Source: an uncultured Saprospiraceae bacterium (lineage in GTDB: Bacteria; Bacteroidota; Bacteroidia; Chitinophagales; Saprospiraceae). From it: a stretch of DNA of 64,000 nt. Location: NCBI GenBank assembly GCA_937997635.1, contig CALLFA010000053.1:25181-89180 (forward strand), in the 5' to 3' direction. The notes beneath the pieces are model-generated. The model made no database searches, was not told where the DNA came from, and saw nothing but the letters and a program-made list of their open reading frames with translations. The translations under genes were made by a program, and so were the position numbers. Below, in pieces: positions 17,559 through 54,221 of this stretch. Position 1 is the first letter of the stretch; each line of letters begins with the position of its first letter.

Positions 17559-18701
17559 ATGTTCGACCGCGCTGTCTTACATCTAGACCTCGACTGCTTT
17601 TTCGTATCAGTTGAGTGTCTTAAAAATTCTTCCTTTAAAGGAAAACCGCTGATCATCGGCGGGACCAGTCGGCGTGGCGTCGTAGCTTCTTGCAGTTATG
17701 AAGCAAGACGATTTGGTGTACATTCTGCGATGCCCATGAAGATGGCATTGCGTCTGTGTCCTGATGCGTTAGTCATTAAAGGTGATGGCGATAGCTACTC
17801 TTATTATTCAAAACTCGTTACCGAAATCATTGCGGACGATGCCCCTCTCTTAGAGAAAGCATCCATCGACGAGTTCTATATTGACCTTACGGGAATGGAC
17901 CGCTACTTCGGTTGTCTGTCTTGGTCTAAAGAACTTCGTTACCGCGTCATTAAAGAATCCGGATTGCCAATATCCTTTGGTCTATCCGTCAACAAGCTGG
18001 TCTCAAAAGTGGGCGCCGGCGAAGGCAAACCAAATGGTGAAACAGAAGTGCCCCGCGGCACGGAAAAAGCATTTCTGTCACCTTTGCCTGTTCGTAAAAT
18101 TCCTGGCGTCGGCAAAGAAACCAACAAGAAGCTCAGTTTCATGGGCGTGCGCCAAGTCAAAACACTCAGCCAAATTCCTGTCCGCCTACTCGAGCGCGAA
18201 TTCGGTAAATTCGGCCGCAACCTCTGGGAAAAAGCCAATGCCATAGACAGCACTCCTGTCATCCCCTATAGCGAAAAAAAATCCATCTCCAAAGAGCGCA
18301 CCTTCATGGAAGACACGCTCGACCTACAGATGATCAGACATAAATTAATGGGCCTCGTAGACAAACTCGCCTACGAACTCCGTAACACGTATAAACTAAC
18401 ATCCTGCGTCACCGTAAAAATCAGATACGCCGATTTTAATACCTATACCAAGCAACGCCGCATTGCCTATACAGCAAACGACAGACAATTAATCTGCCAC
18501 ACCCACGAGTTGTTTGACAGCCTCTACGACAGACGCCAACTCATCCGGTTGATCGGCGTAAAGTTTAGCGGACTCGTGCCTGGCCATTACCAAATCAGCT
18601 TATTTGATGACAGTATGAAAGCGATTAGTTTGTTGGAGCAGCGGGATCGGATTCGGAAGCGGTTTGGGGAAGACTCTATTGGATTTGCAGCAGCTATTTA
18701 G
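17559..18701 (+). CDS. dinB: Y-family DNA polymerase IV, apparently catalytically competent
   Basis: The N-terminus is VLHLDLDCFFVSVE. SIDEFYIDLTG provides the catalytic D/E residues, and the KPNG motif is present. 380 aa. Confidence 0.9.
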   Translation: MFDRAVLHLDLDCFFVSVECLKNSSFKGKPLIIGGTSRRGVVASCSYEARRFGVHSAMPMKMALRLCPDALVIKGDGDSYSYYSKLVTEIIADDAPLLEKASIDEFYIDLTGMDRYFGCLSWSKELRYRVIKESGLPISFGLSVNKLVSKVGAGEGKPNGETEVPRGTEKAFLSPLPVRKIPGVGKETNKKLSFMGVRQVKTLSQIPVRLLEREFGKFGRNLWEKANAIDSTPVIPYSEKKSISKERTFMEDTLDLQMIRHKLMGLVDKLAYELRNTYKLTSCVTVKIRYADFNTYTKQRRIAYTANDRQLICHTHELFDSLYDRRQLIRLIGVKFSGLVPGHYQISLFDDSMKAISLLEQRDRIRKRFGEDSIGFAAAI

Positions 18702-18710
18702 CTGCTGCAA

Positions 18711-18824
18711 AAGTGATGAATCCCGCGCGTGCCGCGGGAAGTGATGAAACCTGCGTAGCCGCAGGAAGTGATGAGTCCCGCGCATGCGGCGGGAAATGAT
18801 GGGCCCGCCTGGCGGCGAGGCGGG
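18711..18824 (+). repeat. Array of four tandem 27-31 nt units, each a conserved head (AAGTGATGAA-like) plus a GC-rich hairpin
   Basis: The units are aagtgatgaatCCCGCGcgtgcCGCGGG, aagtgatgaaaCCTGCGtagcCGCAGG, aagtgatgagtCCCGCgcatgcgGCGGG and aaatgatgggCCCGCCtggcGGCGaGGcggg. The array starts 10 nt after the dinB stop codon. Confidence 0.85.
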
Positions 18825-18912
18825 TGTGTATGGGGAGTGTGCTTGCCTGTCGACAAGACACTTAGAGGGTGAGCTACGGCAGCAAATTTTTTATAATTAG
18901 AAAACTATACAA

Positions 18913-19266
18913 ATGAAAAAGAGAATAATTGAAGAGAAAAGTTTTGATTTTGCGCTTGCGATTATTGAGTTGTATAAAACATTAAGTGCGCAAAACGAAT
19001 ATGTATTTGCCAAGCAAATTTTAAGATCGGGTACGAGTATTGGCGCTAATGTGCAAGAAGCTCAGGCGGCACAAAGTAAGAAAGACTTTATTGCTAAAAT
19101 GTCAATCTCATTAAAAGAAGCAAGGGAGACTTTGTACTGGTTAAGGCTCCTAGAAACAAGCCGTTTGATCAACTTTGACTTCACCAAACTAAAGGCAGAA
19201 ATACACGACATTATCCGCATTCTAACAGCCATTATCAAAACCGCACAAAAGAATCAACAAAGTTAA
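18913..19266 (+). CDS. Four-helix-bundle protein (23S rRNA intervening-sequence protein / Avd family)
   Basis: 117 aa. The sequence FDFALAIIELYKTL...ILRSGTSIGANVQEAQAAQSKKDFIAKMSISLKEARETLYWLRLL carries the family signature. Confidence 0.85.
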   Translation: MKKRIIEEKSFDFALAIIELYKTLSAQNEYVFAKQILRSGTSIGANVQEAQAAQSKKDFIAKMSISLKEARETLYWLRLLETSRLINFDFTKLKAEIHDIIRILTAIIKTAQKNQQS

Positions 19267-19294
19267 TCAGTGTGAAGAAGCCTAAGCCACATCT

Positions 19295-19451
19295 GCCTCG
19301 CCGCCAGGCGGACACATCACCTTTGCCGAACTGGCCTCACCGCCAGGCGGGCCCACCACTTCCCGCGGCACGCGCGGGATTCATAACTTCCCGCGGCATA
19401 CGCGGGATTCATCACTCAACACTTCCCGCGGCAACGCGGGTTTCATCACTT
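19295..19451 (-). repeat. Array of five hairpin units of the same family, inverted relative to 18711..18824
   Basis: The reverse complement reads aagtgatgaaaCCCGCGttgcCGCGGG, ...agtgatgaatCCCGCGtatgcCGCGGG, aagttatgaatCCCGCGcgtgcCGCGGG, aagtggtgggCCCGCCtggcGGtGaGG and ggtgatgtgtCCGCCtggcGGCGaGG. Confidence 0.85.
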
Positions 19452-19481
19452 TATTCAAATACATATCATGTATTTGAATAA
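19451..19481 (+). promoter_or_regulatory. Perfect 14-bp inverted repeat (3-nt spacer) that includes the dnaE2 start codon
   Basis: The sequence is ttattcaaatacat-atc-ATGtatttgaataa. The right arm begins with the ATG at 19468. It is a candidate operator or a hairpin that sequesters the start codon. Confidence 0.4.
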
Positions 19482-22400
19482 TCATACATATTACAGCCTC
19501 CGCCACGGCACCCTCTCCCCAGAAGAGCTCGCCGCACACGCCGCCCAACACGGCATCACCAGCCTTGCACTCACCGACATCAACAACACCTCTTGTGCTT
19601 ACCAATTCATCAAAGCTTGTGAGAAGAATAAAATCAAACCAGTACTCGGCATCGAATTTCGTGATACACCACAAACACCAAAACTAGACACTGATTCAAA
19701 TAATAAAACTCAAGAGCCAAAACCCTACACAAACAATTCAACACCTACCTTGTCGGCAGGCAGATTCAACATTAAACAGTCAACATTACTCTACGTCGGG
19801 ATAGCTAAAAACAACGAAGGATGGCGCGAACTCTGCGAACATCTGACACACAGCTCACTAGAGAATACGCCGTTGCCAGTTCATGCACCTGCGTTTGAGA
19901 ATGCCTATATCATCTATCGAAAATTACCGCCGCATAAAGGCATCAACCAACTGCGGGACAATGAATACATCGGGGTGACGCCTGATGAGGTTAACCGTTT
20001 GTATTCGTCTTATCTAAAAGACCACAAAGATAAATTGGTGGTGTTTGCTCCTGTTACTTTTTTGGATCAGGATGGATTTAAAGTGCATAAGTTGCTTCGA
20101 TGTATCGACCTAAATATCATCATTGGGAAACTTGATCGGCAACATCATGGAAAAGCCAATGAAGTCTTTCACACTCCTGAGCAATTGGAAAAAATATATG
20201 AGCAGTATCCAGAGCTTATAGTGAACGCGAAAAAGATCATGGACAGTTGTTCGATTGATATGTGCGATAAGTCGACGAATAATCGAAAGACATTTACGGG
20301 CTCTCATGCGGGTGATGTCGAGTTGCTCCACAAGCTGTCTGTAAACGGTTGCTTGCGTCGCTATGGCAAACACAACCGCAAAGCCATGACCCGAACATTG
20401 AAGGAATTAAAGGTGATTCACAAGCTTGGCTTTGCGCCGTACTTTTTGATTACGTGGGACATTGTGCGGTATGCACAAACGGCAGGATATCATCACGTCG
20501 GTCGTGGGAGTGGTGCCAATTCTATCGTCGCCTATAATCTGTACATCACCGATGTTGATCCGCTTGATTTGGATCTCTACTTTGAACGATTCATCAATCC
20601 GCATAGGAGTTCGCCACCAGATTTTGATATTGACTTTTCTTGGGATGAGCGCGACGATGTGACGGATTATATTTTTAAACGGTATGGCACAGAACACACG
20701 GCGCTGCTTGCCACATACAACACCTTTAAAGGCAAGTCCATCATTAGAGAATTGGGCAAAGTTGTTGGTTTGCCAAAAGCCGACATCGACATCATAGTGA
20801 ATGAGCCATACAATGATGCCAAGCACCATCCCTTTGCCAAACACATCTTTCGCTACGGTGGTATGATGGAAGGATTTCCCAATTATCTCTCCATTCACGC
20901 GGGTGGGATATTGATAAGTGAAAAGCCACTCAACTACCACACGGCTTTGCAGATGATGCCAAAGGGGTTTCCTGTGACACACTTCGACATGTATGGTGCC
21001 GAAGATTTGGAATTCCATAAATACGATGTGTTGAGTCAACGGGGACTTGGACACATCAAAGATGCTGTGAAGTTGATCGAACAAAATAAGGGCATGGCTG
21101 TGGATATCCACAACATTCCAAAATTAAAAGAAGATCCGCAGGTTAAAGAGCAGCTAAAATCAGGGCAATGCATCGGTTGCTTTTATATCGAGTCTCCTGC
21201 GATGCGAGGCTTGCTTACTAAGTTGAAATGCGACAACTACATTCATCTGGTCGCTGCCAGTTCCATCATCCGTCCTGGTGTTGCCAAATCTGGAATGATG
21301 CGTGAATACATCAAGCGATTCCACGACCCCGATAGCTTTAATCACATCCACCCCGTTTTTGAAGAACACTTAGGAGAGACCTTTGGCGTGATGGTGTATC
21401 AAGAAGATGTGATGAAAATTGTCCATCATTTTTCAGGATTAGATTTAGATGAATCTGATGTCTTACGACGAATTATGACTGGCAAGAAGAAGAGTTCTGA
21501 TACCTTCCATCGGCTACGTGAAAAATATTACCTCAACTGCAAAGAGCGCGGTTATCCACAAGCATTGAGTGAAGAAGTGTGGCGGCAGATCGCAAGTTTT
21601 AGCGGCTACTCCTTTTGCAAGGCACACTCTGCCAGTTTTGCCGTAGAGTCTTTTCAAAGTTTGTATCTCAAGACCTATTATCCCAAAGAATTTATGGTTG
21701 CGGTCATCAATAACTTTGGTGGCTTTTATCGTACTGAAGTCTATGTACACGAAGCGAGAATGTGTGGCGCAAACATCGAAGCCCCTTGTGTCAACAACAG
21801 CACTTACTTAACTAATATATATGACAATGATGTCTACATTGGCCTCATCCACATTGCGGACCTCCAGCGCAAACTTGGGCAACAGATCGTACACGAGCGA
21901 TTGGTCAATGGCGAGTATCGCAGCATGCAAGATTTTGTCAGTCGCATTGACATCCGTAAAGATCAATTGGAAATTTTAATCCGCATCGGCGCCTTCCGAT
22001 TCACGGGCATGAATAAATACGAATTGATGTGGGAGAAAAATGCTGTCCACAATCCTATCATCAAACACTACGGAGAGAAAAGTCTGTTTGAAGTGGAAGC
22101 CGAAACCTTTAGTTTGCCAAGTTTGACAGAAGGCGAATACGAACAAGCCTTTGACGAAATTGAATTGCTTGGCTTTCCTTTGTGTTCGCCCTTCGATTTA
22201 TTGACGACGGAGTATCGCGGGCAAATTGTAGCCAAAGATTTGAAGAAATGCATCGGCAAGCGCGTACAAATGATGGGCTATTACGTTGCACAAAAACATG
22301 TCACGACAGTTAATCGCAAACACATGAGTTTTGGTACGTGGCTAGATTGTGAAGGCCGATTTTTTGACACCACACATTTTCCACCAGCGCTTGCTGCTCA

Positions 22401-22521
22401 TCCGTTTCGAGGTAGAGGTTGTTATCTGATCACTGGAAAGATTGTCGAAGATTTTGGCTTTCCTGGTTTGGAAGTGGAGAAGATGGAGAAGCTGGCTTAT
22501 GTGAAGGATGGACGTTATTAA
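19468..22521 (+). CDS. dnaE2: Error-prone DNA polymerase III alpha-like (DnaE2/ImuC type)
   Basis: 1017 aa. It has a PHP N-terminus (HTYYSLRHG...ALTDINN) and a polymerase core (GRGSGANSIVAYNLYITDVDPL, PPDFDIDFS). There is no long C-terminal tau/beta region. It is paired with a Y-family polymerase gene. Confidence 0.9.
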   Translation: MYLNNHTYYSLRHGTLSPEELAAHAAQHGITSLALTDINNTSCAYQFIKACEKNKIKPVLGIEFRDTPQTPKLDTDSNNKTQEPKPYTNNSTPTLSAGRFNIKQSTLLYVGIAKNNEGWRELCEHLTHSSLENTPLPVHAPAFENAYIIYRKLPPHKGINQLRDNEYIGVTPDEVNRLYSSYLKDHKDKLVVFAPVTFLDQDGFKVHKLLRCIDLNIIIGKLDRQHHGKANEVFHTPEQLEKIYEQYPELIVNAKKIMDSCSIDMCDKSTNNRKTFTGSHAGDVELLHKLSVNGCLRRYGKHNRKAMTRTLKELKVIHKLGFAPYFLITWDIVRYAQTAGYHHVGRGSGANSIVAYNLYITDVDPLDLDLYFERFINPHRSSPPDFDIDFSWDERDDVTDYIFKRYGTEHTALLATYNTFKGKSIIRELGKVVGLPKADIDIIVNEPYNDAKHHPFAKHIFRYGGMMEGFPNYLSIHAGGILISEKPLNYHTALQMMPKGFPVTHFDMYGAEDLEFHKYDVLSQRGLGHIKDAVKLIEQNKGMAVDIHNIPKLKEDPQVKEQLKSGQCIGCFYIESPAMRGLLTKLKCDNYIHLVAASSIIRPGVAKSGMMREYIKRFHDPDSFNHIHPVFEEHLGETFGVMVYQEDVMKIVHHFSGLDLDESDVLRRIMTGKKKSSDTFHRLREKYYLNCKERGYPQALSEEVWRQIASFSGYSFCKAHSASFAVESFQSLYLKTYYPKEFMVAVINNFGGFYRTEVYVHEARMCGANIEAPCVNNSTYLTNIYDNDVYIGLIHIADLQRKLGQQIVHERLVNGEYRSMQDFVSRIDIRKDQLEILIRIGAFRFTGMNKYELMWEKNAVHNPIIKHYGEKSLFEVEAETFSLPSLTEGEYEQAFDEIELLGFPLCSPFDLLTTEYRGQIVAKDLKKCIGKRVQMMGYYVAQKHVTTVNRKHMSFGTWLDCEGRFFDTTHFPPALAAHPFRGRGCYLITGKIVEDFGFPGLEVEKMEKLAYVKDGRY

Positions 22522-22783: not shown

Positions 22784-24634
22784 TTACCACCCAATCCCAT
22801 AATCCTCCCCAAAATTACTTGATCCACCCCACATGCTTCCTTGTTCCCAATCAAAATAAATGGCATTCATAGGGCCAGAAGTTCGATCACTGAACTGTAA
22901 GGTATAGCCCATTTTTTTCAATTCGCGGCGCGTCCAGATAGGAGTGTCGTCTCTCAACAACATGACACCTGGTCGTGTTTCATGTTTGCCAAAAGAGCCT
23001 TTCATTTGAAAACTATTGATGTTGGCGGCTTCAACGGCCTCTTGCACATTCATACCGTACTCCACCATATTTAAAAAGAACTGTAGGGAATTTTGATCTT
23101 GGCTATCGCCACCTTGGATGGCAAATGAAATATAGGGCTTACCATCTTTCAATGCCATAGAAGGAGTCAATGTCGCTCTTGGACGCTTGCCTGGCTCAAC
23201 AACATTGAATGGATTTTCTTCCTCATCCAATACAAAACTTTGCATGCGTTGGCTAAGCCCGACGCCGGTATTTCCAGCAATGACAGCAGGCACCCAACCA
23301 CCGCTCGGGGTAATGGATACGACCCAGCCATCTTTGTCTGCTGCTTGGATGGAGGTTGTCCCTAAATAGAAATTGTCATCTATAAATTCGTCGGATGAGG
23401 AACGCAGTGGCGCGACAGAAGACACACTAACCGTGTCCATTTTCTTAATGTATTCTTTATAAGGATTAGCTCCGCTGCCTTTTTGAAAGGGATATGGATC
23501 ACCAGGAAGTGTGTTCGGATCATTTTGTTCCCAGTTGATTTCTTTGACTCTGCTTTTTGCATAGTCTTTGGAGAGCAATCCTTCCATTGGTTCTTTTGGT
23601 TCGTAGTAAGGGTCACCATAGTAAAAATCTCTATCAGCGAATGCCATATTCATGACTTGATACAGCCCGTGCGTATATTTAGCTGAATTGTATTGCATGC
23701 ATTCCATGTCTAGTTGTTCCATCATATTGAGCGCCTGTAGCATGACAGGCCCTTGTACCCAAGAGGTCAATTTATAGACATCCACACCTTTGTAATTGAC
23801 CTTGTCTGGTTTCTCGATATACACTTCCCAATTTGCCAGATCTTCTTTTGTGATCAAGCCACCTTGTTCTTGCGTACCTCGCACCAGTTCATCCGCAATA
23901 TCACCTTTGTAGAATCGATCATAGGCGGCATAAATCGCTTCCTTTCTTGATTTGCCATTTTGCAAGGCTTGTTTTTCTGCTTCGACCAGTTTGAGTAATG
24001 TTTGTTTGAGATCCTGTTGTACAAAGATTTCACCTTCATTTGGTGCTTCTCTGTCTTGGCCCAGATTAGTCAGATAAATCTCTTTAGAGTATGGCCAGTC
24101 TTTGATTTTTTCTTTGTGTGTTTCAATTCGATCTGCAGTTTGTGCTTCCATTGGATAACCGTCAGCCATGTCAATTGCAGGTGCTAAGACTTCTGCAAGG
24201 CTCATTGTCCCATACTCAGCCAACATAGTCATTAAGCCACCGGGTGTTCCTGGTGTTACTGCAGCCAATGGACCAAACTGTGGGGGGTATTTCATATCTT
24301 TTTCTTTAAAGAAATTGGCCGTTGCGCCAGTTGGAGCGACACCAAGTGCGTTGATGCCGATGACTTCTTTTGTCTTCGGATTATAAATGAGCGCTTGTGT
24401 TTCTCCTCCCCAGCTTAAGACATCCCACATGGTACAAGTCGCAGCGAGCATGCCACAAGCCGCATCTATGGCATTGCCACCGTCGTTGAAGATTTTGGCC
24501 CCAGCTGTGGCGCCGAGAGGTTTGCCTGTGATGGCCATCCATTCTTTGGCGTGTAGGATTGGTTTTTGGGTGGGTTGGCTGATCAGTTCAAGGCTAGATA
24601 GGAGAATCAATGTTAAAAGCAGTTTGGAGTGCAT
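22784..24634 (-). CDS. ggt: Gamma-glutamyltransferase, periplasmic
   Basis: 616 aa with a signal peptide. The autoprocessing/nucleophile region is YLGTTSIQAADKDGWVVSITPSGG. The protein resembles the GGT family along its full length. Confidence 0.9.
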   Translation of the reverse strand: MHSKLLLTLILLSSLELISQPTQKPILHAKEWMAITGKPLGATAGAKIFNDGGNAIDAACGMLAATCTMWDVLSWGGETQALIYNPKTKEVIGINALGVAPTGATANFFKEKDMKYPPQFGPLAAVTPGTPGGLMTMLAEYGTMSLAEVLAPAIDMADGYPMEAQTADRIETHKEKIKDWPYSKEIYLTNLGQDREAPNEGEIFVQQDLKQTLLKLVEAEKQALQNGKSRKEAIYAAYDRFYKGDIADELVRGTQEQGGLITKEDLANWEVYIEKPDKVNYKGVDVYKLTSWVQGPVMLQALNMMEQLDMECMQYNSAKYTHGLYQVMNMAFADRDFYYGDPYYEPKEPMEGLLSKDYAKSRVKEINWEQNDPNTLPGDPYPFQKGSGANPYKEYIKKMDTVSVSSVAPLRSSSDEFIDDNFYLGTTSIQAADKDGWVVSITPSGGWVPAVIAGNTGVGLSQRMQSFVLDEEENPFNVVEPGKRPRATLTPSMALKDGKPYISFAIQGGDSQDQNSLQFFLNMVEYGMNVQEAVEAANINSFQMKGSFGKHETRPGVMLLRDDTPIWTRRELKKMGYTLQFSDRTSGPMNAIYFDWEQGSMWGGSSNFGEDYGIGW

Positions 24635-25001
24635 ATATTTAAAGTTTGATTTTGATCTTTCAAAATACGAATTAGCTACTTAGTAAAGTAATCTTTTAAA
24701 CAGCTAGTTTTTCTAAGATAGAATGGATAGTAATGCTGCAGTTATCCTTAAAGATTTAGTCACAAAGTGTCACTTTTTGAAAACCTGTTACTCTAATGAG
24801 TAGTTGACGTTTTTTGAAATACATTACCTGTTTTAATAATGTGCTTTAAAATTTGTATGTTTCAACATCATATTTGCTTGATGAGGAAATTATTTTGCTA
24901 AATTTAAATACCTAAATCAAATATTTTCTTCTTAATAAGCTGGCCACTTTATTAGTAGCTTTATAGGAAAATGTAAAAACATAACAGATTTAGAGAACTT
25001 T

Positions 25002-25640
25002 ATGGAGAGTAAAGGACTTTGGGAAACTGCAATAGAAGAATCCATAAAAGGAGACAATACGCTATTCAATAAGCTCTTTTTAGATCTTTATGAATCTAAG
25101 TATAGAGCTGCATTGCGGAAATTTGTTGATGATAGTTATGAAGTTGAAGAAGTGTATACAATAACGATGACTAAGTTTTGGGAAAGATTTGTAGTCCAGA
25201 GAGAAGTGCTGCCAAAAACAAATATTTAAGGATACATATATCGAATGGCCTACAATACAAATTTTCATATCAGAAGGCATGGAAGAATGGAAAAGTCTAT
25301 AGATTTAACACTCGAAAATGAACCTGGAATATCTAAGCTTGTACATAGTGTTGAGTATCCCAACTATTTGGACGCAAATGAACAGGACTCGTTGAAGAGA
25401 TCAAAATTACTTCGAGCGGCAATAGAGAAGTTAGATGAGATGTGTAAAAGTATAATTAGTGAGAATGTCATGGGCGGGATGAAATTAAAGGAATTAGTGT
25501 CTGAGTTGTCGTACAAGGGATCATATAGCGGCTTAGTGCAAAAGAAGAAACGGTGCATTAAAAAGCTGTCAAAATTAATTTATATCGAAATGAAAGCATC
25601 TGGAATCTCTGAAGAAGAAATAACTCAAAATGAAAACTGA
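25002..25640 (+). pseudogene. ECF-like sigma-70 family factor interrupted by one in-frame TAA (25227-25229)
   Basis: ORFs 25002..25229 and 25245..25640 are in the same frame. The junction reads ...LPKTNI*GYIYRMAYNTNFHIRR, which is a region 2.3/2.4-like motif. The region 4 HTH is LDEMCKSIISENVMGGMKLKELVSELS...SGLVQKKKRCIKKL. Confidence 0.7.
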
Positions 25641-26394
25641 ACGATTAGAACAAGCATATAACTTTGATTTGTCACCTGAAGAGTTAGATAAACTGAATCA
25701 ATCTGATGTGCAAAAAATAAGAGAGTACATGGCTGCTCGGACTATTTCTAATAATATAATGGAAACAGAATACTCTGAAGCATTGATTCTAAAAAAACAA
25801 GAATTTAAAACATTACTGCAAGAAGCATCTACAAACAATGCTATTCATGGTACAAATGAATTAACAAAAGAGTTGCCTAAAAATAACTTCAAATATACTT
25901 CACTGTTAATTGTCCTTGTCCTTGGTCTAATCACAGCTTTCTTTTTCTATCAATCGAATCAATCTCTTAAGGCCAATAATGTCCAAAATGAGATAGAACT
26001 CTATGCCGATAATATAATCAACATTGACTATTTGGAAAAAATCGAACGAGATGAGACCAAGATAAAAAGTGAGTTACTAGAATTTTTTCAAGCAAAGGAA
26101 TATGACGCGCTTTTAACTGCACTTGAGACGGAGAAGCTGAATGATGATAACAATAAACTATTAAAAGCTTATTCCTATTTGAAATTAGGGAAAGTAGCAT
26201 TAGCAGACCAACAAATAGCTTCGATAGATGTCGCAAATGTATTGCAACCGGATTTATATTACTGGATTGCTGTATGGATTAATGTGGAGCAAGAAAAGTA
26301 TGATGAAGCTGAAAACTTACTTGATAAACTAATAAATAATGAATATCCGTCTTCGGAGGGAGCTCAGGAGATTAAAGATAAATTACAAGACTAA
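25630..26394 (+). CDS. Anti-sigma-like single-pass membrane protein with an outside TPR-like domain
   Basis: It overlaps the end of the sigma gene by 11 nt. It has an ~85-aa N-terminal soluble part, one TM (YTSLLIVLVLGLITAFFFY) and a C-terminal helical-repeat region. Assignment is by architecture and position only. Confidence 0.45.
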   Translation: MKTERLEQAYNFDLSPEELDKLNQSDVQKIREYMAARTISNNIMETEYSEALILKKQEFKTLLQEASTNNAIHGTNELTKELPKNNFKYTSLLIVLVLGLITAFFFYQSNQSLKANNVQNEIELYADNIINIDYLEKIERDETKIKSELLEFFQAKEYDALLTALETEKLNDDNNKLLKAYSYLKLGKVALADQQIASIDVANVLQPDLYYWIAVWINVEQEKYDEAENLLDKLINNEYPSSEGAQEIKDKLQD

Positions 26395-26433
26395 CATCGT
26401 AAATAGTAAATTTGAATTCTTAAATTAAATAAC

Positions 26434-26946
26434 ATGAATGCCATAACCTTCAAACTAATATTAATCTTTATTTTTTCCTTTTTAATTTCAACCACTCTCA
26501 GTGGTCAAAGAGGAGGAGGTACTTAGACATCTCCAGAGAGATCTGGATCAGTGTTAACTCAAAACACCAGACAAGAATGTTATCAATTGCATTCTGACAA
26601 TATAATAGATTGGATTGGATGTTTATGCGCAGAGAATCCGGCAGATGAACTTTGTGAATCTGACTATTCTCAATATTCCAATGTTGATAGTTTGCCTACT
26701 GTAACTTATGAAAGAGACAACCTAATTATTGACACAAAAATTATTAATGTAACATCTGTAAGCGTGCGAATATTTAATATGAATACTGCTGTAGTAGAAT
26801 ATGCTGCAACGCTCAGTAACTTATCAGAATCTCGATTTAAGTCTATAGTTCAAATTAGTGACATTAACTTAGAGAATGGATTGTATTTAGTGGCTCTGAA
26901 TATTGATGGATTTCCAAGTAGAGCTCAGATCTTTGTTAGAAATTAA
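26434..26946 (+). pseudogene. Small secreted protein with a T9SS type A CTD-like tail, interrupted by one in-frame TAG (26524-26526)
   Basis: The ATG at 26434 encodes the signal peptide MNAITFKLILIFIFSFLISTTLSGQ. The TAG is in the same frame as ORF 26551..26946 (offset 117 nt). The tail is VSVRIFNMNTAVV...LENGLYLVALNIDGF...QIFVRN. Confidence 0.5.
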
Positions 26947-26960
26947 TTCCGTTGCTTGAG

Positions 26961-29579
26961 ATGAATAGATTTGAAAGAATTAGCACAGTTTGTATACAAT
27001 CTTTGCTGATTCTTTCAATCTCTTTGATAGGTCAAGACCCGAACTCGCTAACCTCCAAACAACTGTCTCTAGAATATTATGAAGAAGGGTATAAAATTCT
27101 ACAATCTGTATATGAAAATAATTCTCCTTATGCTGATGCAATTCCATTATTTGAAAAATCAGCATTCTATGCGCGAAAAGACAAAGATTATAATTCGGAA
27201 TTATACGCACTAGACCATATTGCTTATATTTATTTAGTACTTAATGACTATGGCTCTGCTAGCCGTGTGTTAGGGGAATGTTATGCCAAATATGCTGCAA
27301 TTGAAAATAATAACGATCAATATCTATTAGCTGATTTAAATTTCATTAAAAGTTATTTGCTATTTCGTTCTGGAGAAAATGATCAAAGTCTTTATTACGT
27401 TAGCTTATTGGACAAATATCTAAAAAGAGGAGGTAAATTCTCTTACAAATCTGAAAATGTATATAGAAATCTAGCTTTTAATTACCAAGAGATTGGAGAT
27501 TATCACAAAGCCATTGAAGTTTTTCAATATGTTGTTGATACTAATCCGAAAATTACAATCTTTGAACATGCCACATATCTTTCAAATATAGCTGGATGTT
27601 ATATCGAGCTAGGTGAATCTGAAAAGGCAAATGAGTTTTTATTAAAATCGGAGTCTTTATTATTTAAGAACGAAGATGCAATAACATTGGATTTTTACAA
27701 AAGTGCATTCTTTGAGGAAAAAGCAAGGTTTTTAATAAAATCAGAAAAGTATGAGCTTGCAAAGAGGAACTTACTTCAACAAGAAAAACTTAAGAATAGA
27801 ACGTTGGAAGACATAAATCGACTAATTCTCTATGGAGATATGTTGGTACAGCAAGATTCTTTTGTATCTGCGGCAAAATTTTATGAAGAAGCCATTTCAC
27901 TTTGCGAATCCGAATTGAATCATAACGTTTATAAACAAGCTCAGATTTTCGTTAAGTCTGGTGAAAATGCCTTGAATTTTGATAATGATTATGCAATTGC
28001 CCAACTAGATAATTGTGTTGATTTACTGACACACTCTCAAAACCTGGAGTCAGTAGATTTAGATTCCATTACTAGCCATCGAATATTAATAGAAGGATTA
28101 TTTAATTTAAGCACAGCTCATATCGTTCGTAATGATTTGGTTAAGTCAGAGTATTACGCTCTCCAAGCATTTAGAATTGCTAAGTATTTATTAGAATACA
28201 GCTTTGTAAATCCAGAGTCAAAATTTTACTATGTATTTTATTATCGACAACACGTCTCGAAGATTCTAGACTTACTCATCGAAAATAATGCAACAGAAAC
28301 TGCTTATAAACTTATGGCAGAGAGTAAGTCATTACTGTTTAGAATAGAATACGATCAGATTAATAACAATCAACAACCACTTGAAAGTCTTAGTGCTGGT
28401 TTTTCTAATGAGAAAGAAGTCGTTGATGTCAATCTAGTGAAAAAATTATTAAAAAGGAATAAGAAGAACAAATCGAATCTAATCGATTATTTTGTTTACA
28501 AAGATAAGTTGTACATCTTTCATTTTTCTAAAAATCAATTGCAAGTAATAACGAAGAAAATCGAGCAAAAGCACCGAGATCAAATAGTATCCCTTTATAC
28601 TGATATGAGTGATGTGAATACGAATTCCTTTGATTCTATTTTATTTCACTCAAATCAATTGTATGAGTTGTTACTCAAAGATGTATTGGCAAATAGTAAA
28701 AGACATGCAAAAAATTTGGTGATCATTCCAGATGAAGAATTACACTACGTTCCCTTTGAAGTATTAGCTAAACAAAATGAGAAGGAGATTGCTCAAAACA
28801 GATATGATCAGATAAACTATCTCATTAATGATTATGATGTTTCTTATCACTATTCATCTCTACTAATGACAGATGACCGTGAACTGAGTCAAGAATATAT
28901 TGGCTTTGCACCGTTCAATAAAAAGAGTACTTCAAAAGATAATTTTTCATTCTTACCTAACAGTGAAGAAGAAATTGACTATGCTAACCAATTGTTTGAA
29001 GGAACAGTGTTTAACGAATCCTCCGCTGATACGACACAGTTGTTTCATGCTCTACATCAAGGAGGGATTCTTCATATAGCCACACACACATCAGAAGACA
29101 GCCTTGTTAAAAATTTGAATCGATTGGTTTTATCTGACGGTATGATTGGATCGGAAAGAATTGATAGCATAGCCTGTGATTTAGCAGTATTAAGTGCTTG
29201 CAAAACAGCACATGGTGAACTCAAGAAGGGAGAAGGCCTCATTAGTATTTCCCGTACATTTTTATCAAGAGGAGCCAAAAGTGTCTTGACATCTTTATGG
29301 AACGTCAATGATAAAAGTGCCCTAACCATATCTTCTTTGTTCTTTGATCGATTACATCAAGGCAACAATATTGGAAATTCATTATCAAGTTCGAAGAGAA
29401 AGTATCTCGAAACAATCAATTCGCCCATCCAAGCACATCCTTATTATTGGGCAGGTTTTGTTAATATAGGTAATCATCAATTGAAAATACAAAAGGGCTT
29501 TGATCCATTGTTGATGATACTTTTTTTATCGATAAGCATTCTGATTTATTTTTATTGGAAAAAAGTGTCATCTAATTGA
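26961..29579 (+). CDS. TPR-CHAT caspase-like protease, membrane anchored
   Basis: 872 aa counted from the ATG at 26961. It has a signal peptide (ISTVCIQSLLILSISLIGQ) and a long TPR-like region. The CHAT His/Cys dyad context is GILHIATHT and DLAVLSACKTAHGE, and ...LWNVNDKSA follows. There is a C-terminal TM (LLMILFLSISILIYFYW). Confidence 0.85.
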   Translation: MNRFERISTVCIQSLLILSISLIGQDPNSLTSKQLSLEYYEEGYKILQSVYENNSPYADAIPLFEKSAFYARKDKDYNSELYALDHIAYIYLVLNDYGSASRVLGECYAKYAAIENNNDQYLLADLNFIKSYLLFRSGENDQSLYYVSLLDKYLKRGGKFSYKSENVYRNLAFNYQEIGDYHKAIEVFQYVVDTNPKITIFEHATYLSNIAGCYIELGESEKANEFLLKSESLLFKNEDAITLDFYKSAFFEEKARFLIKSEKYELAKRNLLQQEKLKNRTLEDINRLILYGDMLVQQDSFVSAAKFYEEAISLCESELNHNVYKQAQIFVKSGENALNFDNDYAIAQLDNCVDLLTHSQNLESVDLDSITSHRILIEGLFNLSTAHIVRNDLVKSEYYALQAFRIAKYLLEYSFVNPESKFYYVFYYRQHVSKILDLLIENNATETAYKLMAESKSLLFRIEYDQINNNQQPLESLSAGFSNEKEVVDVNLVKKLLKRNKKNKSNLIDYFVYKDKLYIFHFSKNQLQVITKKIEQKHRDQIVSLYTDMSDVNTNSFDSILFHSNQLYELLLKDVLANSKRHAKNLVIIPDEELHYVPFEVLAKQNEKEIAQNRYDQINYLINDYDVSYHYSSLLMTDDRELSQEYIGFAPFNKKSTSKDNFSFLPNSEEEIDYANQLFEGTVFNESSADTTQLFHALHQGGILHIATHTSEDSLVKNLNRLVLSDGMIGSERIDSIACDLAVLSACKTAHGELKKGEGLISISRTFLSRGAKSVLTSLWNVNDKSALTISSLFFDRLHQGNNIGNSLSSSKRKYLETINSPIQAHPYYWAGFVNIGNHQLKIQKGFDPLLMILFLSISILIYFYWKKVSSN

Positions 29580-30206
29580 TATTGCTTACACTATGAAATG
29601 ATCATACTTTTCGTAATCATGTATTAATAATGTATAAGGGGGCTGTAACAGTTATTCTAAATGTACAATGAGAAGATAAGTGCTGTTCAAAAAATAATCT
29701 TTGTTCTTAGGCCCATTATAATTTATGCATACCCAGAATCTAATTCCGTTATCTTTTCTAGAACGATCGCAAATAAGTTAAAAACTGCCCTCAACTCTTC
29801 CAGATCTTTCATGATGCCTCTACGCACAAAATACAATTCGTCAATACCCTCAGAATAGAGTTTATTTTGTAATAAGCCATCGTTGTCTTTTATAGTTAGC
29901 ATAGTGTTCTCCGTATGTGAAGATGAATTCTCCTCTCGCAGATTGATTTTATGGTACCGATTAAGACCAAATTATCAATTAATGTCTGGTGCAAACGACA
30001 CTTTATACCCAACGGATTTGAGTATGAGCTGTTAACAATGAGGCCATTTTTTCAAGATCAAGGCGTAAAACGTAGGAATAGTGGTACTATTATGAGGCTT
30101 TACAACGCAGATATTGATAAAATGGGCAGTAGTAAATGGGTCACACTCAAGTGCGCTGGGTATATATAAAAGAAAATTTTCATACATCTTGGCAGCAAAA
30201 AAACAG

Positions 30207-32995: not shown

Positions 32996-33679
32996 ATGTG
33001 TGGGAGATCTTCACTTACTGTTACAGAGAAAGAGTTAGAAAAACGATTCAATGCTACGTTCTATAGCGAAGATCTTGAGCGATACAATCCTCTACCTAAT
33101 TTTAATGTTGCGCCTACGCACATGCATCCAGTGATGACAAATCTGGATCAAGAACACCTCCAATTTTTCAGGTGGGGATTGATTCCGTTTTGGGCGAAAG
33201 ACATCAAGGTCGGTTATAAGATGATCAATGCCAGAAAAGAAACACTACTAGAAAAAAACACATTCAAAAATGCTGTCAATAAAAAACGGTGTATTGTGCC
33301 TTTTGATGGATTCTATGAATGGAAAAAAACGGAAGACGGCAAACAACCGTATAGAATAGTTACAACAGATACAGACATTTTTAGCGTCGCCGGTTTATGG
33401 GAACGATGGAAATCTCCTGAAGGTCAAGACATCTATTCCTTTACCTTAATCACACAAGAACCGAATGAATTAATGACAGACATTCACAATCGGATGCCTG
33501 CCATATTGTTGCCAGATCAAGAGCGAGATTGGTTGGATATGACAATCCCTGCCGAAGAAGCTATACAGATGTTGGAGCCCTATCCTTCAGAGTTGATGAA
33601 GGCGTATCGGGTGTCGAAGAGGGTTGGCAATGTACGTGAAAACGACAAGGAATTAATTCATGAAGTGAATGAATCATGA
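32996..33679 (+). CDS. SOS response-associated peptidase (SRAP/YedK family abasic-site sensor)
   Basis: The N-terminus MCGRSSL carries the catalytic Cys2. FYEWKK and HNRMPAIL motifs are present. 227 aa. Confidence 0.9.
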   Translation: MCGRSSLTVTEKELEKRFNATFYSEDLERYNPLPNFNVAPTHMHPVMTNLDQEHLQFFRWGLIPFWAKDIKVGYKMINARKETLLEKNTFKNAVNKKRCIVPFDGFYEWKKTEDGKQPYRIVTTDTDIFSVAGLWERWKSPEGQDIYSFTLITQEPNELMTDIHNRMPAILLPDQERDWLDMTIPAEEAIQMLEPYPSELMKAYRVSKRVGNVRENDKELIHEVNES

Positions 33680-33950
33680 TGAATGCTCCTTTGTCGCAAG
33701 TTATGAATGCTCCTTTGTCGCAAGTTATGAATGCGCCCTATGTCGCAAGTGATGAATGCGCCTTTCAGTTGCAAGTGATGAATACTCCCTATCGGGAGTA
33801 AGTGTGGAGTCCCGCTTTTTAGGAATTAATTCACGAAGTGAATGAATAATGATGAATGCTCCTATGTCGCAAGTTATGAATGCGCCTTTCAGTTGCAAGT
33901 GATGAATGCTCCCTATCGGGAGTAAGTGTGGAGTCCCGCTTGATGCGGGA
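33680..33950 (+). repeat. Hairpin-repeat array of the same head motif family, including two identical 24-nt units and a second copy of the SRAP 3' end
   Basis: 33680-33703 and 33704-33727 are identical (tgaatgctcctttgtcgcaagtta). Degenerate units follow, with heads aagtgatgaat / aagttatgaat and hairpins CTCCCtatcGGGAG and TCCCGCttgatGCGGGA. The segment gaattaattcaYgaagtgaatgaatNatga occurs at 33650-33679 (end of the gene) and again at 33823-33852. Confidence 0.85.
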
Positions 33951-48685: not shown

Positions 48686-48690
48686 ATGGT

Positions 48691-49257
48691 TTATTTGCCA
48701 GTAGTTAAAATGTCATCAAGATTCGTTAAATCAGAGAAAAGGAATTCTATTCGTTGTTCCTTGGTATAATAGATTACCAACCGACGGTTGCCATCAATTT
48801 TAGCATATGCTTTACCAGTTCCTGGCGATTTAATGGGAAAAAATCCTGGTCCATACCAACGTTCGAACATCCCTTTGACATCTTCAATTAATACATCTGA
48901 CCAAAGTTCTTTATTCCATGGCGACCAACCAATGTATTGGATAAATCCGATCATGGATTGAATTTTGTCGTTTTTAAATTTCGGGTAAAACTCAAACCCT
49001 GCTTCATACTTTAAGTCTGTGATTTTTTGATACACTGTGGTATTCTGAGAACCTTCTCTTGCCAGCCCTTGCTTATTCAATTCCCAACACTTGTCATAAA
49101 ATACTTTTGACTCCATGCCAAAATGAAACCCATGAAACAAGGTATCATTTTTAATTCCAGAAGCTAATCCTCGCTTAACAGCTTTATGGTATTCTGACTT
49201 TGGCTTGCAAGCGATCACAATACTCAACAGTAAAATCCCTACAAGTATCTTATTCAT
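48691..49257 (-). CDS. Small lipoprotein of unknown function
   Basis: I chose the start MNKILVGILLLSIVIAC, which contains a lipobox. The gene is embedded between two CRTAC1-like genes. Confidence 0.5.
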   Translation of the reverse strand: MNKILVGILLLSIVIACKPKSEYHKAVKRGLASGIKNDTLFHGFHFGMESKVFYDKCWELNKQGLAREGSQNTTVYQKITDLKYEAGFEFYPKFKNDKIQSMIGFIQYIGWSPWNKELWSDVLIEDVKGMFERWYGPGFFPIKSPGTGKAYAKIDGNRRLVIYYTKEQRIEFLFSDLTNLDDILTTGK

Positions 49258-52561: not shown

Positions 52562-52565
52562 TGGT

Positions 52566-52605
52566 GAAATAAAAAGACCCGCAATACTATAAGCATTGCG
52601 GGTCT
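52566..52605 (-). terminator. Intrinsic terminator after susD
   Basis: There is a perfect 11-bp stem, agacccgcaat (52575-52585) and attgcgggtct (52595-52605), with a 9-nt loop. On the minus strand it is followed by TTTTTATTT. Confidence 0.75.
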
Positions 52606-52625
52606 GTAATATTTGAACTAGTTTA

Positions 52626-54194: not shown

Positions 54195-54221
54195 GATTTA
54201 TTAGTTTCTCTTTATTTAATC

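Follow-up and report, generated by a model that had tools for sequence, protein, structure and literature searches.

Described systems that couple proteolysis to sigma factor release

The classical switches based on regulated intramembrane proteolysis are RpoE/RseA of Escherichia coli, which is operated by DegS and RseP, and SigW/RsiW of Bacillus subtilis, which is operated by PrsW. Their site-1 protease, either the serine protease DegS or the metalloprotease PrsW, is not linked to the sigma factor pair. An ECF sigma factor usually drives transcription of the operon that encodes it.

A different arrangement is found in Myxococcus xanthus, where DdvA is a transmembrane anti-sigma factor with a periplasmic TPR-CHAT moiety (PDB 8ROT; PMC11506125, PMC6061681). 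According to one proposal, this moiety serves DdvA as its site-1 protease; once it is removed, DdvA is degraded by RseP (PMC11506125). CHAT-dependent cleavage has not been observed in DdvA, whose catalytic dyad could be mutated without a phenotype in the conditions that were tried. The bulk of the TPR-CHAT is believed to keep RseP away sterically (PMC11506125). Fused DdvA-like proteins have been found only in Myxococcota and in one Comamonas (PMC11506125), and DdvS and DdvA control a CBASS/CRISPR defense island (PMC11506125, PMC6061681). In type III-E CRISPR systems, Csx29 cleaves Csx30, the inhibitor that holds CASP-sigma (PMC10028731). A preliminary description of the locus studied here had recounted the type III-E case correctly, and it knew of no characterized example of a CRISPR-independent, protease-gated sigma switch in Bacteroidota. 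For this idea DdvA is a precedent (PMC11506125).

Gene content of the Saprospiraceae locus

We analyzed a 64,000-nucleotide stretch of DNA from an uncultured Saprospiraceae bacterium (the window). Four co-directional genes on its forward strand encode, in this order, a divergent ECF-type sigma factor (25002..25640), a single-pass membrane protein (gene 2, 25630..26394), a small secreted protein (gene 3, 26434..26946) and a TPR-CHAT protease (26961..29579). The coordinates and spacing reported earlier are accurate: the first two genes overlap by 11 nt, and the following gaps measure 39 nt and 14 nt. The neighbors are housekeeping genes (gamma-glutamyltranspeptidase, PurF, DnaE2-like and SRAP). 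The promoter presumably lies on the forward strand within the 367 nt (24635..25001) that separate the sigma start from the divergently oriented gamma-glutamyltranspeptidase gene, where a scan for the sigma-70 consensus found sites no more numerous than in shuffled sequence.

Translation of the sigma gene, 212 codons long, reveals a single in-frame TAA at 25227-25229 (codon 76), which falls within sigma region 2 and splits the open reading frame into pieces of 75 and 131 aa. The near-identical contig L001 has a G at position 25227 (GAA, Glu) and encodes an intact 212-aa product; L002 shares the TAA of the window, and the sigma genes of relatives are intact. The nonsense codon is recent and still polymorphic in the population. 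The preliminary description had only hinted at it by speaking of a repaired sigma gene. Its assignment of the product as ECF-like holds for a family-specific profile (58.7 bits, positions 9-180 of 191), which was built from CHAT-adjacent sigma factors with the window clade left out, but not for the curated models. Pfam Sigma70_r2 remained below threshold (E=0.22), as did TIGR02937 (E=9.6e-10, 38.3 bits, cut-off 42.9), and TIGR02985 scored far under its cut-off despite E=1.9e-12.

The product of gene 2 is 254 aa long. Its topology was predicted solely from hydropathy and the positive-inside rule, which give one transmembrane helix at aa 90-107 (nt 25897-25950), a preceding head of about 89 aa in the cytoplasm and a TPR-like C-terminal domain in the periplasm. 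This agrees with the anti-sigma architecture proposed earlier, but no curated anti-sigma model matches the protein and the zinc motif is absent. It is called anti-sigma-like only for its position and its architecture. A profile HMM of proteins encoded downstream of the related sigma genes aligns with its full length (34.8 bits, positions 9-246 of 247), although only with the filters off. When the alignment of gene 2 with 19 relatives was used as a profile, all PDB matches were TPR proteins. In this alignment Arg140 (nt 26047-26049) and Trp212 are nearly invariant. The position of Arg140 lies 21-35 aa past the transmembrane helix and is occupied by Arg in 35/40 and by Lys in 3/40 family members, so that 38 of the 40 partner proteins carry a basic residue next to the membrane. 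Judging by this conservation, Arg140 is possibly the site of CHAT cleavage. The residue could instead be structural, for example by capping the first TPR helix.

Gene 3 (170 codons), which encodes a Cys-rich protein, is likewise disrupted: its reading frame contains a TAG at 26524-26526, immediately past the signal peptide. The TAG is present in the window and in L001, and L002 does not differ from the window anywhere in gene 3, so all three assemblies are affected. The signal peptide had been recognized in the preliminary description; the interruption is absent from it. Intact homologs are 165-206 aa long and have a signal peptide and four conserved Cys residues. The T9SS-type tail described earlier scores below threshold on both models, Por_Secre_tail (E=7e-4, 20.2 bits, cut-off 27) and TIGR04183 (14.3 bits, cut-off 23). 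However, the AlphaFold2 (AF2) model of the protein (pLDDT 83.7) is a seven-stranded sandwich, for which Foldseek returned the C-terminal domains of RgpB and mirolase at E of about 2-4e-3, with DUF3244 proteins as the best matches. As modeled, the C-terminal beta-sandwich thus resembles a T9SS sorting domain. In Aquimarina mytili the protease adjoins an S8 peptidase with a Por_Secre_tail domain (E=2.7e-10).

The 872-aa product of the last gene is a TPR-CHAT caspase-like protease, as had been proposed. It matches Pfam CHAT (PF12770) with E=6e-45 and 154 bits (cut-off 24), and it also matches TPR_12. A predicted signal sequence (aa 1-24, ...SLIG|QD) is followed by a TPR superhelix (about aa 30-470), the CHAT domain (nt 28653-29474), and a predicted C-terminal transmembrane helix (aa 850-866, nt 29508-29558) with a short basic tail. 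Hydrophobic N- and C-termini are common to most members of the CHAT family. The motifs GILHIATHT and LAVLSACKTAHG align correctly with the family-invariant H705, H709 and C747, and the predicted catalytic residues are His709 (nt 29085-29087) and Cys747 (nt 29199-29201). The dyad is invariant in 18/18 and in 88/88 relatives. In a Foldseek search, the AF2 model (pLDDT 73.6) matched Csx29 (8eey_B, E=2e-14), separase (9hn0_B, E=5e-14) and DdvA (8rot_A, E=2.8e-11).

Comparison with the described systems

In DdvS/DdvA as in the window, an ECF sigma factor is paired with a single-pass membrane partner, a TPR-CHAT domain of the same fold carries a His/Cys dyad at the periplasmic face of the inner membrane (fold and location being predictions for the window), and the proposed logic is a CHAT site-1 cut of the juxtamembrane linker followed by RseP-type intramembrane cleavage. 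However, the anti-sigma-like part and the TPR-CHAT part, which are fused in DdvA, are here two proteins, each with an anchor of its own, and the protease of the window has both a signal peptide and a C-terminal transmembrane helix. The CHCC/HxxxCxxC zinc motif is missing from the partner, which has a periplasmic TPR domain of its own. Finally, the module is found in Bacteroidota and sits among housekeeping genes rather than next to CBASS/CRISPR genes.

In craspase (Cas7-11 and Csx29 with Csx30 and CASP-sigma), too, an ECF-like sigma factor and the protein that inhibits it are genetically linked to a TPR-CHAT protease. Cleavage of this inhibitor is thought to free the sigma factor, and Csx29 is the best structural match of the window's protease, albeit with only about 11-12% identity in the structural alignment. 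The module has no Cas7-11, crRNA, Csx30 or Csx31, and its activation cannot be RNA-guided. Furthermore, its putative inhibitor is a membrane protein, and its protease has a predicted periplasmic location and membrane anchor, whereas that of craspase is cytoplasmic.

With the classical pairs the module shares a sigma gene overlapped by the gene of a single-pass protein whose N-terminal domain is cytoplasmic, and the expectation of a site-1 cut outside the membrane and a site-2 cut within it. It differs in its candidate site-1 protease, a caspase-like cysteine protease of clan CD whose gene lies beside the pair, and in its anti-sigma-like protein, for which no similarity to RseA or RsiW could be detected.

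Conservation of the module

Co-occurrence of the genes is strongly positive in both directions, although many of the sampled loci are phylogenetically related and the counts given here therefore overstate the number of independent events. Starting from the CHAT domain, we found an ECF-like sigma gene within 3 kb at 50/79 Bacteroidota loci, and at 31 of the 43 that have at least 3 kb on both sides. Per 10 kb there were 1.34 sigma genes in the vicinity of the CHAT gene and 0.15 farther off. The sigma genes close to CHAT are almost always followed, usually with an overlap of 3-10 nt, by the gene of a single-pass protein of 240-260 aa, which has its one transmembrane helix at about aa 75-105 and a TPR domain in the periplasm. 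In the reciprocal search from the partner family, a sigma gene lay directly upstream at 31/31 metagenome loci and a CHAT gene within 1.5 kb at every one of the 17 loci whose flank measures 3.5 kb or more.

The adjacency of the sigma and CHAT genes is kept across convergent, divergent and co-directional orders. The commonest layout has the CHAT gene and the sigma operon converging, so that the protease is transcribed separately. The four-gene order of the window recurs in L012 and L003 and in L093, and in part in L092, where only the end of gene 2 is followed by gene 3. In the window clade the protease belongs to the sigma factor's operon, which also fits a protease that is an output of the switch.

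Comparison with the L012 ortholog gave a dN/dS of 0.17 for the sigma gene; the values are 0.165 for gene 2 and 0.11-0.17 for the CHAT gene, which speaks for long-term constraint. Gene 3 differs from its L012 ortholog (34% identity, dN/dS = 0.40). It is missing from the commonest layout, and other lineages carry unrelated secreted proteins in its stead. Gene 3 is a lineage-specific accessory, an optional and fast-evolving passenger of one clade. Because it is absent or replaced outside its lineage, its product, suggested earlier as one of two possible targets, is unlikely to be a general substrate of the protease.

A proposed envelope switch and its alternatives

We propose that the module is a three-component envelope switch, a reading to which we assign a probability of about 0.45. 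The partner, translationally coupled to the ECF-type sigma factor, would hold it by its cytoplasmic N-terminus. The protease would use its signal peptide for export and its C-terminal helix as an anchor in the inner membrane. A periplasmic signal sensed by the TPR arrays would activate the CHAT domain, which would then, as site-1 protease, cut the juxtamembrane segment of the partner, possibly after Arg140. Removal of the remaining stub by regulated intramembrane proteolysis would release the sigma factor. That the CHAT domain would cut the anti-sigma-like protein, one of the two targets named in the preliminary description, is plausible.

The protease could also be an output of the sigma factor, namely an envelope protease that is induced together with the operon and processes surface or T9SS cargo, for instance the product of gene 3, with the sigma factor being freed by an unlinked site-1 protease. 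The habit of ECF sigma factors to transcribe their own operon suits this explanation, as do the CHAT genes of the window clade, L014, L027 and L039, which come after sigma and anti-sigma and share their strand, and the secreted T9SS-type neighbors of some lineages (gene 3 and the A. mytili peptidase). We nevertheless consider it unlikely. Such neighbors are absent at most loci and are not homologous between lineages, the commonest layout implies separate transcription, and the near-obligate one-to-one adjacency (17/17) is unexpected for an output gene. The element GGT[TG]AC, which precedes many related sigma genes at a distance of 38-44 nt, points in the same direction: it occurs upstream of 24/56 sigma genes versus 4/61 CHAT genes, with a background of 3.7%, and this enrichment at the sigma genes only speaks for CHAT as a regulator and not a target. 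It was not found in 24635..25001, upstream of the window's sigma gene.

Alternatively, the TPR-CHAT protein may be mainly a periplasmic sensor or steric co-inhibitor that binds the TPR domain of the partner, as RseB binds RseA. It would then cleave itself or a signal protein rather than the anti-sigma-like protein. Periplasmic TPR arrays in both proteins are suited to such binding, and the steric role ascribed to the TPR-CHAT of DdvA, together with its silent dyad mutants, is in line with it. Two observations make this explanation rather doubtful. His, His and Cys are invariant in all 88 relatives, which argues that catalysis is under selection, and the near-invariant basic residue next to the membrane is more readily explained by a substrate site than by a docking surface.

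That the locus is a decaying remnant without function is improbable. Nonsense codons in two of the four genes, the lower GC content of the region (32-36% versus 39-44% in the flanks) and the very few close relatives of the CHAT and gene 2 proteins among 5.8 billion proteins would agree with it, but intact orthologous four-gene operons exist in other lineages, three of the genes are constrained as described above, and the sigma lesion is one polymorphic base. The idea that the genes are chance neighbors is refuted by the two-way neighborhood tests. Inactivity of the window copy as such is already part of the switch explanation: because of the nonsense codons in the sigma gene and gene 3, this copy is probably switched off, and they preclude any claim of activity in the source organism.

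An anti-phage or conflict system akin to craspase or to the DdvA-controlled island is very improbable, as the Csx29-like fold and the DdvS/DdvA precedent are outweighed by housekeeping neighbors, by a protease predicted to lie outside the cytoplasm and away from nucleic-acid sensors, by the lack of matches to PADLOC models for any of the four proteins, and by the absence of a CRISPR array or cas-like gene among the window ORFs scanned, the last as stated earlier.

In summary, the sigma factor, its single-pass partner and the TPR-CHAT protease, predicted to be extracytoplasmic, form a CRISPR-independent unit, as the preliminary description had suggested. This module is undescribed in the literature searched. 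It is a true conserved functional unit, widespread in Bacteroidota, and a split variant of the DdvA design.

Layout of the locus and identity of the protease

Four co-directional reading frames lie on the forward strand of the window: a sigma-like gene with an in-frame TAA (25002-25640), gene 2 (25630-26394), which overlaps the sigma gene by 11 nt, gene 3 with an in-frame TAG (26434-26946), which follows after a gap of 39 nt, and, 14 nt further on, the gene of an 872-aa CHAT protein (26961-29579). The frames and spacings agree exactly with those of the preliminary description, which was largely right about the four genes. However, two of the four are interrupted by nonsense codons, the first of which it had only hinted at and the second of which it had missed.

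The TPR-CHAT identity of the last gene product is unambiguous. The protein matches the Pfam CHAT profile PF12770 with an E-value of 6e-45 (154.3 bits, cut-off 24) over profile positions 5-289 of 289, and it also matches TPR_12. The His/Cys dyad that had been called intact is correctly aligned: H705, H709 and C747 (GILHIATHT / LAVLSACKT) are invariant in an alignment of the window protease with 17 relatives, and their equivalents are present in 88 of 88 family ORFs. Close relatives are few, as the homolog search gave one at 85% identity in the sister species and the next at 30% or less over the CHAT domain. A sequence search of the PDB with the protease returned only designed TPR proteins, and it was the fold search that reached Csx29 and DdvA. 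An AlphaFold2 model (pLDDT 73.6, pTM 0.65) gave as its top Foldseek matches in the PDB Csx29, separase, craspase and DdvA with E-values of 2e-14 to 3e-11, among them the craspase protease Csx29 (8eey_B, E=2e-14), separase (9hn0_B, E=5e-14) and the Myxococcus anti-sigma factor DdvA (8rot_A, E=2.8e-11); the corresponding TM-scores were modest (0.26-0.45), as is expected for flexible superhelices. As modelled, the protein has a TPR-CHAT fold of the separase/craspase type, and it is predicted to be proteolytically active.

Most proteases of the family are 940-1100 aa long and begin with a hydrophobic N-terminus; at the C-terminal end a hydrophobic segment precedes basic residues. The N-terminal segment of the window protein and of its close relatives terminates in ...SLIG|QD, ...PLIA|QD or ...SLTC|QD, and Gln at the +1 position is typical of Bacteroidota signal peptidase I substrates. 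Judged by hydropathy and the positive-inside rule, the TPR-CHAT body would be periplasmic and tethered by its C-terminus to the inner membrane.

Tandem paralog pairs are common among the TPR-CHAT genes of this family. We found them in the compared loci L003 (1644-2105), L004 (6001-12038), L005 (1065-8297), L023, L037, L064, L065, L075 and L077, and the tandem pairs of Aureispira/Saprospiraceae have no sigma gene within their flanks. The window, unlike these loci, holds a single copy.

The sigma factor and its membrane partner

The first gene had been described as an ECF-like sigma factor. With its stop codon masked, the product does not pass the curated models for regions 2 and 4: Pfam Sigma70_r2 gives E=0.22, TIGR02937 38.3 bits (cut-off 42.9) and TIGR02985 47.7 bits (cut-off 126.4; E=1.9e-12). 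The E-values on the TIGR models are significant (1e-9 to 1e-12), yet the scores stay under the curated thresholds. On the other hand, an HMM trained on the sigma ORFs beside other CHAT genes, with the window clade left out, matches the window protein nearly end to end with 58.7 bits (positions 9-180 of 191). A member of that CHAT-adjacent set, the sigma factor of locus L021, passes Sigma70_r2 (28.5 bits vs 24), that of locus L060 scores exactly at the cut-off (24.0 vs 24), and that of L006 carries Sigma70_ECF, r4_2 and r4 domains. Given the family profile match and at least one member of the set that passes the Pfam sigma model, the window gene is best regarded as a divergent ECF-type sigma factor.

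Gene 2 had been assigned an anti-sigma architecture. This is borne out by its position directly downstream of the sigma gene, by the coupling through the 11-nt overlap (3-10 nt in most relatives) and by its predicted single-pass topology, but not by a model or a motif: none of the anti-sigma models matched, and the N-terminal part contains no Cys. A search for HxxxCxxC in the first 80 aa of the sigma-adjacent partners also gave no match, although this pattern is unreliable as it also missed the motif that is visible in L006 and L008. The protein has about 89 residues ahead of one transmembrane segment (aa 90-107), with basic residues on the N-terminal side of the latter, and a TPR-like C-terminal domain. 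Partner proteins in general have one transmembrane segment at about aa 75-105, preceded by basic residues, from which hydropathy and the positive-inside rule predict a cytoplasmic N-terminus and a periplasmic TPR domain. Against the PDB, the family profile gave only TPR matches, for the C-terminal half of the partner. A profile of sigma-downstream proteins matches the partner in L004 with E=2e-34, and it aligns gene 2 end to end with 34.8 bits only when the HMMER bias filter is off. A word-index homolog search with gene 2 found its own species cluster only.

The most conserved polar position of the partner family is an Arg located 21-35 residues after the transmembrane segment, just ahead of the TPR domain. 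Of 40 partner sequences, 35 have Arg here and 3 have Lys; the window residue is Arg140 (IERDE), and both exceptions are partners of a different, beta-rich zinc type. Cleavage after Arg is known from several clan CD proteases, such as separase, metacaspases and gingipain R, which makes Arg140 a concrete candidate for the P1 site of a cleavage. It is equally possible that this Arg has a structural role.

Single-pass partners with a beta-rich C-terminal domain in place of TPR repeats were observed beside CHAT-adjacent sigma factors in L006 (9277-9978), L008 (5986-6699), L044 (8960-9682) and L084 (9292-10023), and those of L006 and L008 carry the canonical HxxxCxxC zinc anti-sigma motif. The lineages concerned, Melioribacteraceae among them, lie outside Bacteroidota or branch deeply. 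These loci suggest that the CHAT association may reach more than one anti-sigma family.

Conservation of the neighborhood

Strong evidence comes from the co-occurrence of the three genes, which the preliminary description had named as a check of its proposal and which we found in both directions of search. Among five contexts of distant protease relatives in loci L004-L011, two (L006 and L008) have an ECF sigma factor and a single-pass HxxxCxxC protein of about 230-240 aa adjoining the CHAT gene; L004 has a sigma factor and a 242-aa single-pass TPR-type partner resembling gene 2, and the contexts of L005 and L010 have no sigma factor. We then scanned genomes, one per species, with a four-sequence alignment of the CHAT domain and obtained 535 CHAT-domain relatives, of which the best 79 loci were kept. 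Nearly all of these 79 are from Bacteroidota (Saprospiraceae, Flavobacteriaceae, Cyclobacteriaceae, Chitinophagaceae, Prolixibacteraceae and others), the nearest genome relatives of the window CHAT and sigma genes being those of a Saprospiraceae MAG (L013, L014), and the loci with a sigma gene near CHAT include cultured Aquimarina, Zobellia, Maribacter and Roseivirga. By local HMMs, an ECF-like sigma ORF is present in the flanks of 55 of the 79 kept loci and within 3 kb of the CHAT gene in 50; among the 43 loci that extend at least 3 kb on both sides, 31 have a sigma gene within 3 kb. Sigma genes number 1.34 per 10 kb in the vicinity of the CHAT gene and 0.15 per 10 kb at greater distance. Almost always, the next gene after the sigma gene, which mostly overlaps it by 3-10 nt, encodes a 240-260-aa protein with a single transmembrane segment at about residue 75-105.

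The reciprocal scan started from the partner. With a Flavobacteriaceae-type sub-alignment of this protein, metagenomes yielded 31 partner loci, and all 31 have a sigma gene directly upstream. A CHAT gene lies within 1.5 kb in 17 of the 17 loci with at least 3.5 kb of flank, and each locus without a CHAT gene ends right behind the partner gene. The same metagenome scan with the partner alignment of the window clade gave no matches. The order of the trio varies, the convergent arrangement being the commonest, with divergent and co-directional ones also seen. Many of the sampled loci are related to each other, so the counts of both scans do not represent independent events. Even so, the spread of the association over several families and several arrangements makes a functional coupling of sigma factor, partner and CHAT protease the only reasonable reading.

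A sequence element recurs upstream of the sigma genes. GGT[TG]AC is found upstream of 24 of 56 related sigma genes, in 16 cases at a distance of 38-44 nt from the start codon (L018, L022, L025, L036, L042, L047, L048, L060, L071, L078, L080, L083 and others), as against 4 of 61 CHAT genes and a background of 3.7% per 150 nt. It is often followed by an A/T-rich sequence, and in Chitinophagaceae loci a second box, (G/T)TACAAAT, follows about 16 nt past it. The element may be the autoregulatory ECF promoter of this related sigma group. Its enrichment at sigma but not CHAT genes fits an autoregulated sigma operon with a separately expressed protease, in which the protease is a regulator and not a target. 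In the window clade the element is absent, and it is uninformative on the window locus itself.

State of the module in the window lineage

The TAA at 25227-25229 divides the sigma product into pieces of 75 and 131 aa, and the TAG at 26524-26526 lies directly behind a signal-peptide-like start of 30 aa in gene 3. A comparison with L001, a near-identical contig of another assembly, shows 47 differences between about 19,000 and 37,900, position 25227 among them. In L001 this position is G, which gives GAA (Glu) and an intact sigma gene of 212 codons. A third assembly, L002, carries the TAA, whereas the sigma ORF is intact in the orthologs of L012 and L093. In gene 3 the window and L001 share the TAG, and L002 does not differ from the window over this gene.

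Two other explanations of the stop codons were considered. Recoding of both can be dismissed, since one is TAA and the other TAG, the other window genes are intact and have normal stops, and the sister strain has GAA at the first site. Sequencing error is unlikely because the TAG occurs in the window and in L001, with L002 identical to the window there, and because the TAA occurs in two of three assemblies that differ at other sites. The lesions are thus real and recent, and they arose in the window lineage first in gene 3 and then, in part of the population, in the sigma gene.

In the sister species (L012 and L003, from one JGI metagenome) the same locus lies beside the same gamma-glutamyltranspeptidase (GGT) gene with all four genes intact, and a second CHAT paralog follows the four-gene set. 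By tblastn, no remnant of such a second paralog was found downstream of the window CHAT gene. Between the window and the sister species, dN/dS is 0.17 for the sigma gene, 0.165 for gene 2 and 0.11-0.17 for the CHAT gene, compared with 0.03 for the flanking GGT gene. Until recently, therefore, purifying selection acted on all three core genes. Gene 3 is fast-evolving (dN/dS 0.40, 34% identity). The window copy of the module is probably inactive, and the small population-genetic point to be made is that this lineage is in the course of losing it.

Across 24001-30000 the module has a GC content of 32-36%, against 39-44% in the genes on either side. The low-GC module occupies the same chromosomal position in the sister species, which argues against a recent insertion.

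Gene 3 and its replacements

The preliminary description counted gene 3, a protein with a T9SS CTD-like tail, as a fourth part of the module. The tail scores below both curated cut-offs (PF18962, Por_Secre_tail, 20.2 bits vs 27; TIGR04183 14.3 vs 23), and the gene 3 ortholog in L012 has no Pfam match at E<0.01. The AlphaFold2 model (pLDDT 83.7) consists of three short helices and a seven-stranded beta-sandwich, which in Foldseek resembles the CTDs of RgpB (7pq4, E=2.3e-3) and mirolase (8qb1, E=4e-3), with better scores for DUF3244 and GH2 Ig-like domains. A T9SS tail is plausible, but not proven. The signal segment of gene 3 and its homologs ends in ...SG|QR or ...SA|QR, and in the window it is cut off from the remainder by the TAG.

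The four-gene order with a gene 3 homolog recurs in L012/L003 and in L093, where the identities to the window are 44% (sigma), 36% (gene 2), 26% (gene 3) and 49% (CHAT), and partially in L092, a 714-nt contig that is limited to the end of gene 2 and the gene 3 behind it. In L014 the position is taken by an unrelated 134-aa secreted protein. In Aquimarina mytili KCTC 23302 (L027, 4351-5958) the gene between the anti-sigma-like and CHAT genes encodes an S8 subtilase of 535 aa, which has a poly-Asp stretch and clearly carries a T9SS sorting domain (Por_Secre_tail, E=2.7e-10). The module has there acquired a second protease that is unrelated to the first. Most loci have nothing at this position. 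Gene 3 is accessory and not part of the core.

Chromosomal surroundings

The window is a normal chromosomal stretch. It contains a SusC/SusD locus with FG-GAP/ASPIC proteins, a CHU_C T9SS-tailed protein, a Y-family polymerase and DnaE2-like pair, SRAP and PurF, the last with 65-66% identity to Saprospiraceae or Portibacter lacus proteins and 92-93% to metagenome proteins. The absence of cas genes and of a CRISPR array noted earlier was confirmed: no CRISPR-like repeats or array were found within the window, the PADLOC models gave no match to the module, and the window ORFs, as seen by Pfam (most ORFs of at least 120 aa) or the L001 annotation, are housekeeping genes, part of a polysaccharide-utilization locus (PUL) or of unknown function, with no cas-type gene among them.

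Three other regions deserve mention. At 17559-22521, where the local GC content rises to 44-47%, a Y-family polymerase (IMS domains, 380 aa) and a DnaE2-like PHP/pol III alpha protein (1017 aa) look like an error-prone "mutasome" pair. Their genes are parted by a small 23S-rRNA-intervening-sequence-protein gene (PF05635) that is flanked by 28-nt tandem repeats (18711-18801 and 19358-19416). At 33677-33909, just 3' of the SRAP (YedK-like) gene, a 24-nt unit (TGATGAATGC.CCT.TGTCGCAAG) occurs in about seven copies in two blocks. A related core, AAGTGATGAA, is found in the repeats at 18711-18801, and its presence in both regions suggests a dispersed REP-like element. On the minus strand, 40201-57173 is a polysaccharide-utilization-like locus of unusual composition: after a SusC/SusD pair come three large FG-GAP/ASPIC (UnbV) proteins and one DUF6923 protein, the latter bearing a CHU_C type B T9SS signal.

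Comparison with known systems and proposed mechanism

The closest characterized system is the DdvS/DdvA pair of Myxococcus xanthus, an ECF sigma factor and its anti-sigma factor. DdvA combines in one protein a cytoplasmic zinc anti-sigma domain, a transmembrane helix, a flexible linker and a periplasmic TPR-CHAT domain with a His/Cys dyad (PMC11506125). Its authors propose a signal-induced autoproteolysis by CHAT in trans followed by RseP cleavage; they showed that RseP degrades the protein after removal of TPR-CHAT, but did not observe the CHAT cut itself (PMC11506125). The window module has the same parts in the same predicted compartment. However, the single polypeptide that defines the DdvA family is here split over the genes at 25630-26394 and 26961-29579, which a further gene separates, the partner lacks the zinc motif and has an extra periplasmic TPR domain, and the genes reside among housekeeping genes of a member of Bacteroidota. 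By analogy, the module plausibly works like DdvA.

The type III-E craspase, whose description as background to the original proposal was correct (PMC10028731), is a more distant analogy, as the window has no Cas7-11, array, Csx30 or Csx31 and the predicted compartment differs. The best-supported reading of the locus is a CRISPR-independent sigma switch gated by a predicted extracytoplasmic protease, as had been proposed. At the level of functional linkage it is strongly backed by the gene neighborhoods, while for the catalytic step, a CHAT-gated release of the sigma factor, we would put the probability at about 0.45. In such a switch the membrane-tethered periplasmic CHAT protease would be the cognate site-1 protease of the TPR-bearing anti-sigma factor and would cut it after the conserved juxtamembrane Arg. 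Extended to the phylum, this would mean that activation of ECF factors by a periplasmic CHAT site-1 protease, with a cut after the juxtamembrane Arg, is widespread in Bacteroidota, that these proteases form a new class of RIP site-1 proteases, and that they are a free-standing ancestor or derivative of the fused DdvA. We offer this wider proposal tentatively and consider it rather more apt to fail than to hold.

The statement that Bacteroidota have no characterized example agrees with the literature searched, where we found no paper on a sigma/anti-sigma/CHAT module in this phylum, although an earlier listing in the ECF Hub is possible. CHAT is not mentioned in the main text of the ECF reclassification paper (PMC7826278); its supplements or the ECF Hub may list an ECF group that has a CHAT neighbor. 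The idea itself, however, is already embodied by DdvA, and for this reason the module is not categorically new. What is new is a split and far more widespread variant of the DdvA design that is without a characterized member.

Bacteroidota have the most ECF sigma factors per genome of any phylum, about 22 on average according to the reclassification paper (PMC7826278). For most of these factors the activating signal and the site-1 protease are unknown, and a candidate site-1 protease encoded beside its sigma/anti-sigma pair is a directly testable system. The value of the finding is at the level of the family and its testability in cultured Flavobacteriaceae rather than in the window locus. If the proposed mechanism is true, it would provide a simpler two-protein model for research on DdvA, in which protease and substrate are separable and cleavage can be tested in trans. 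Furthermore, the coupling of a sigma factor to a caspase-like protease, as in type III-E CRISPR systems and DdvA, would then be a general design of bacterial signaling and not a peculiarity of defense islands.
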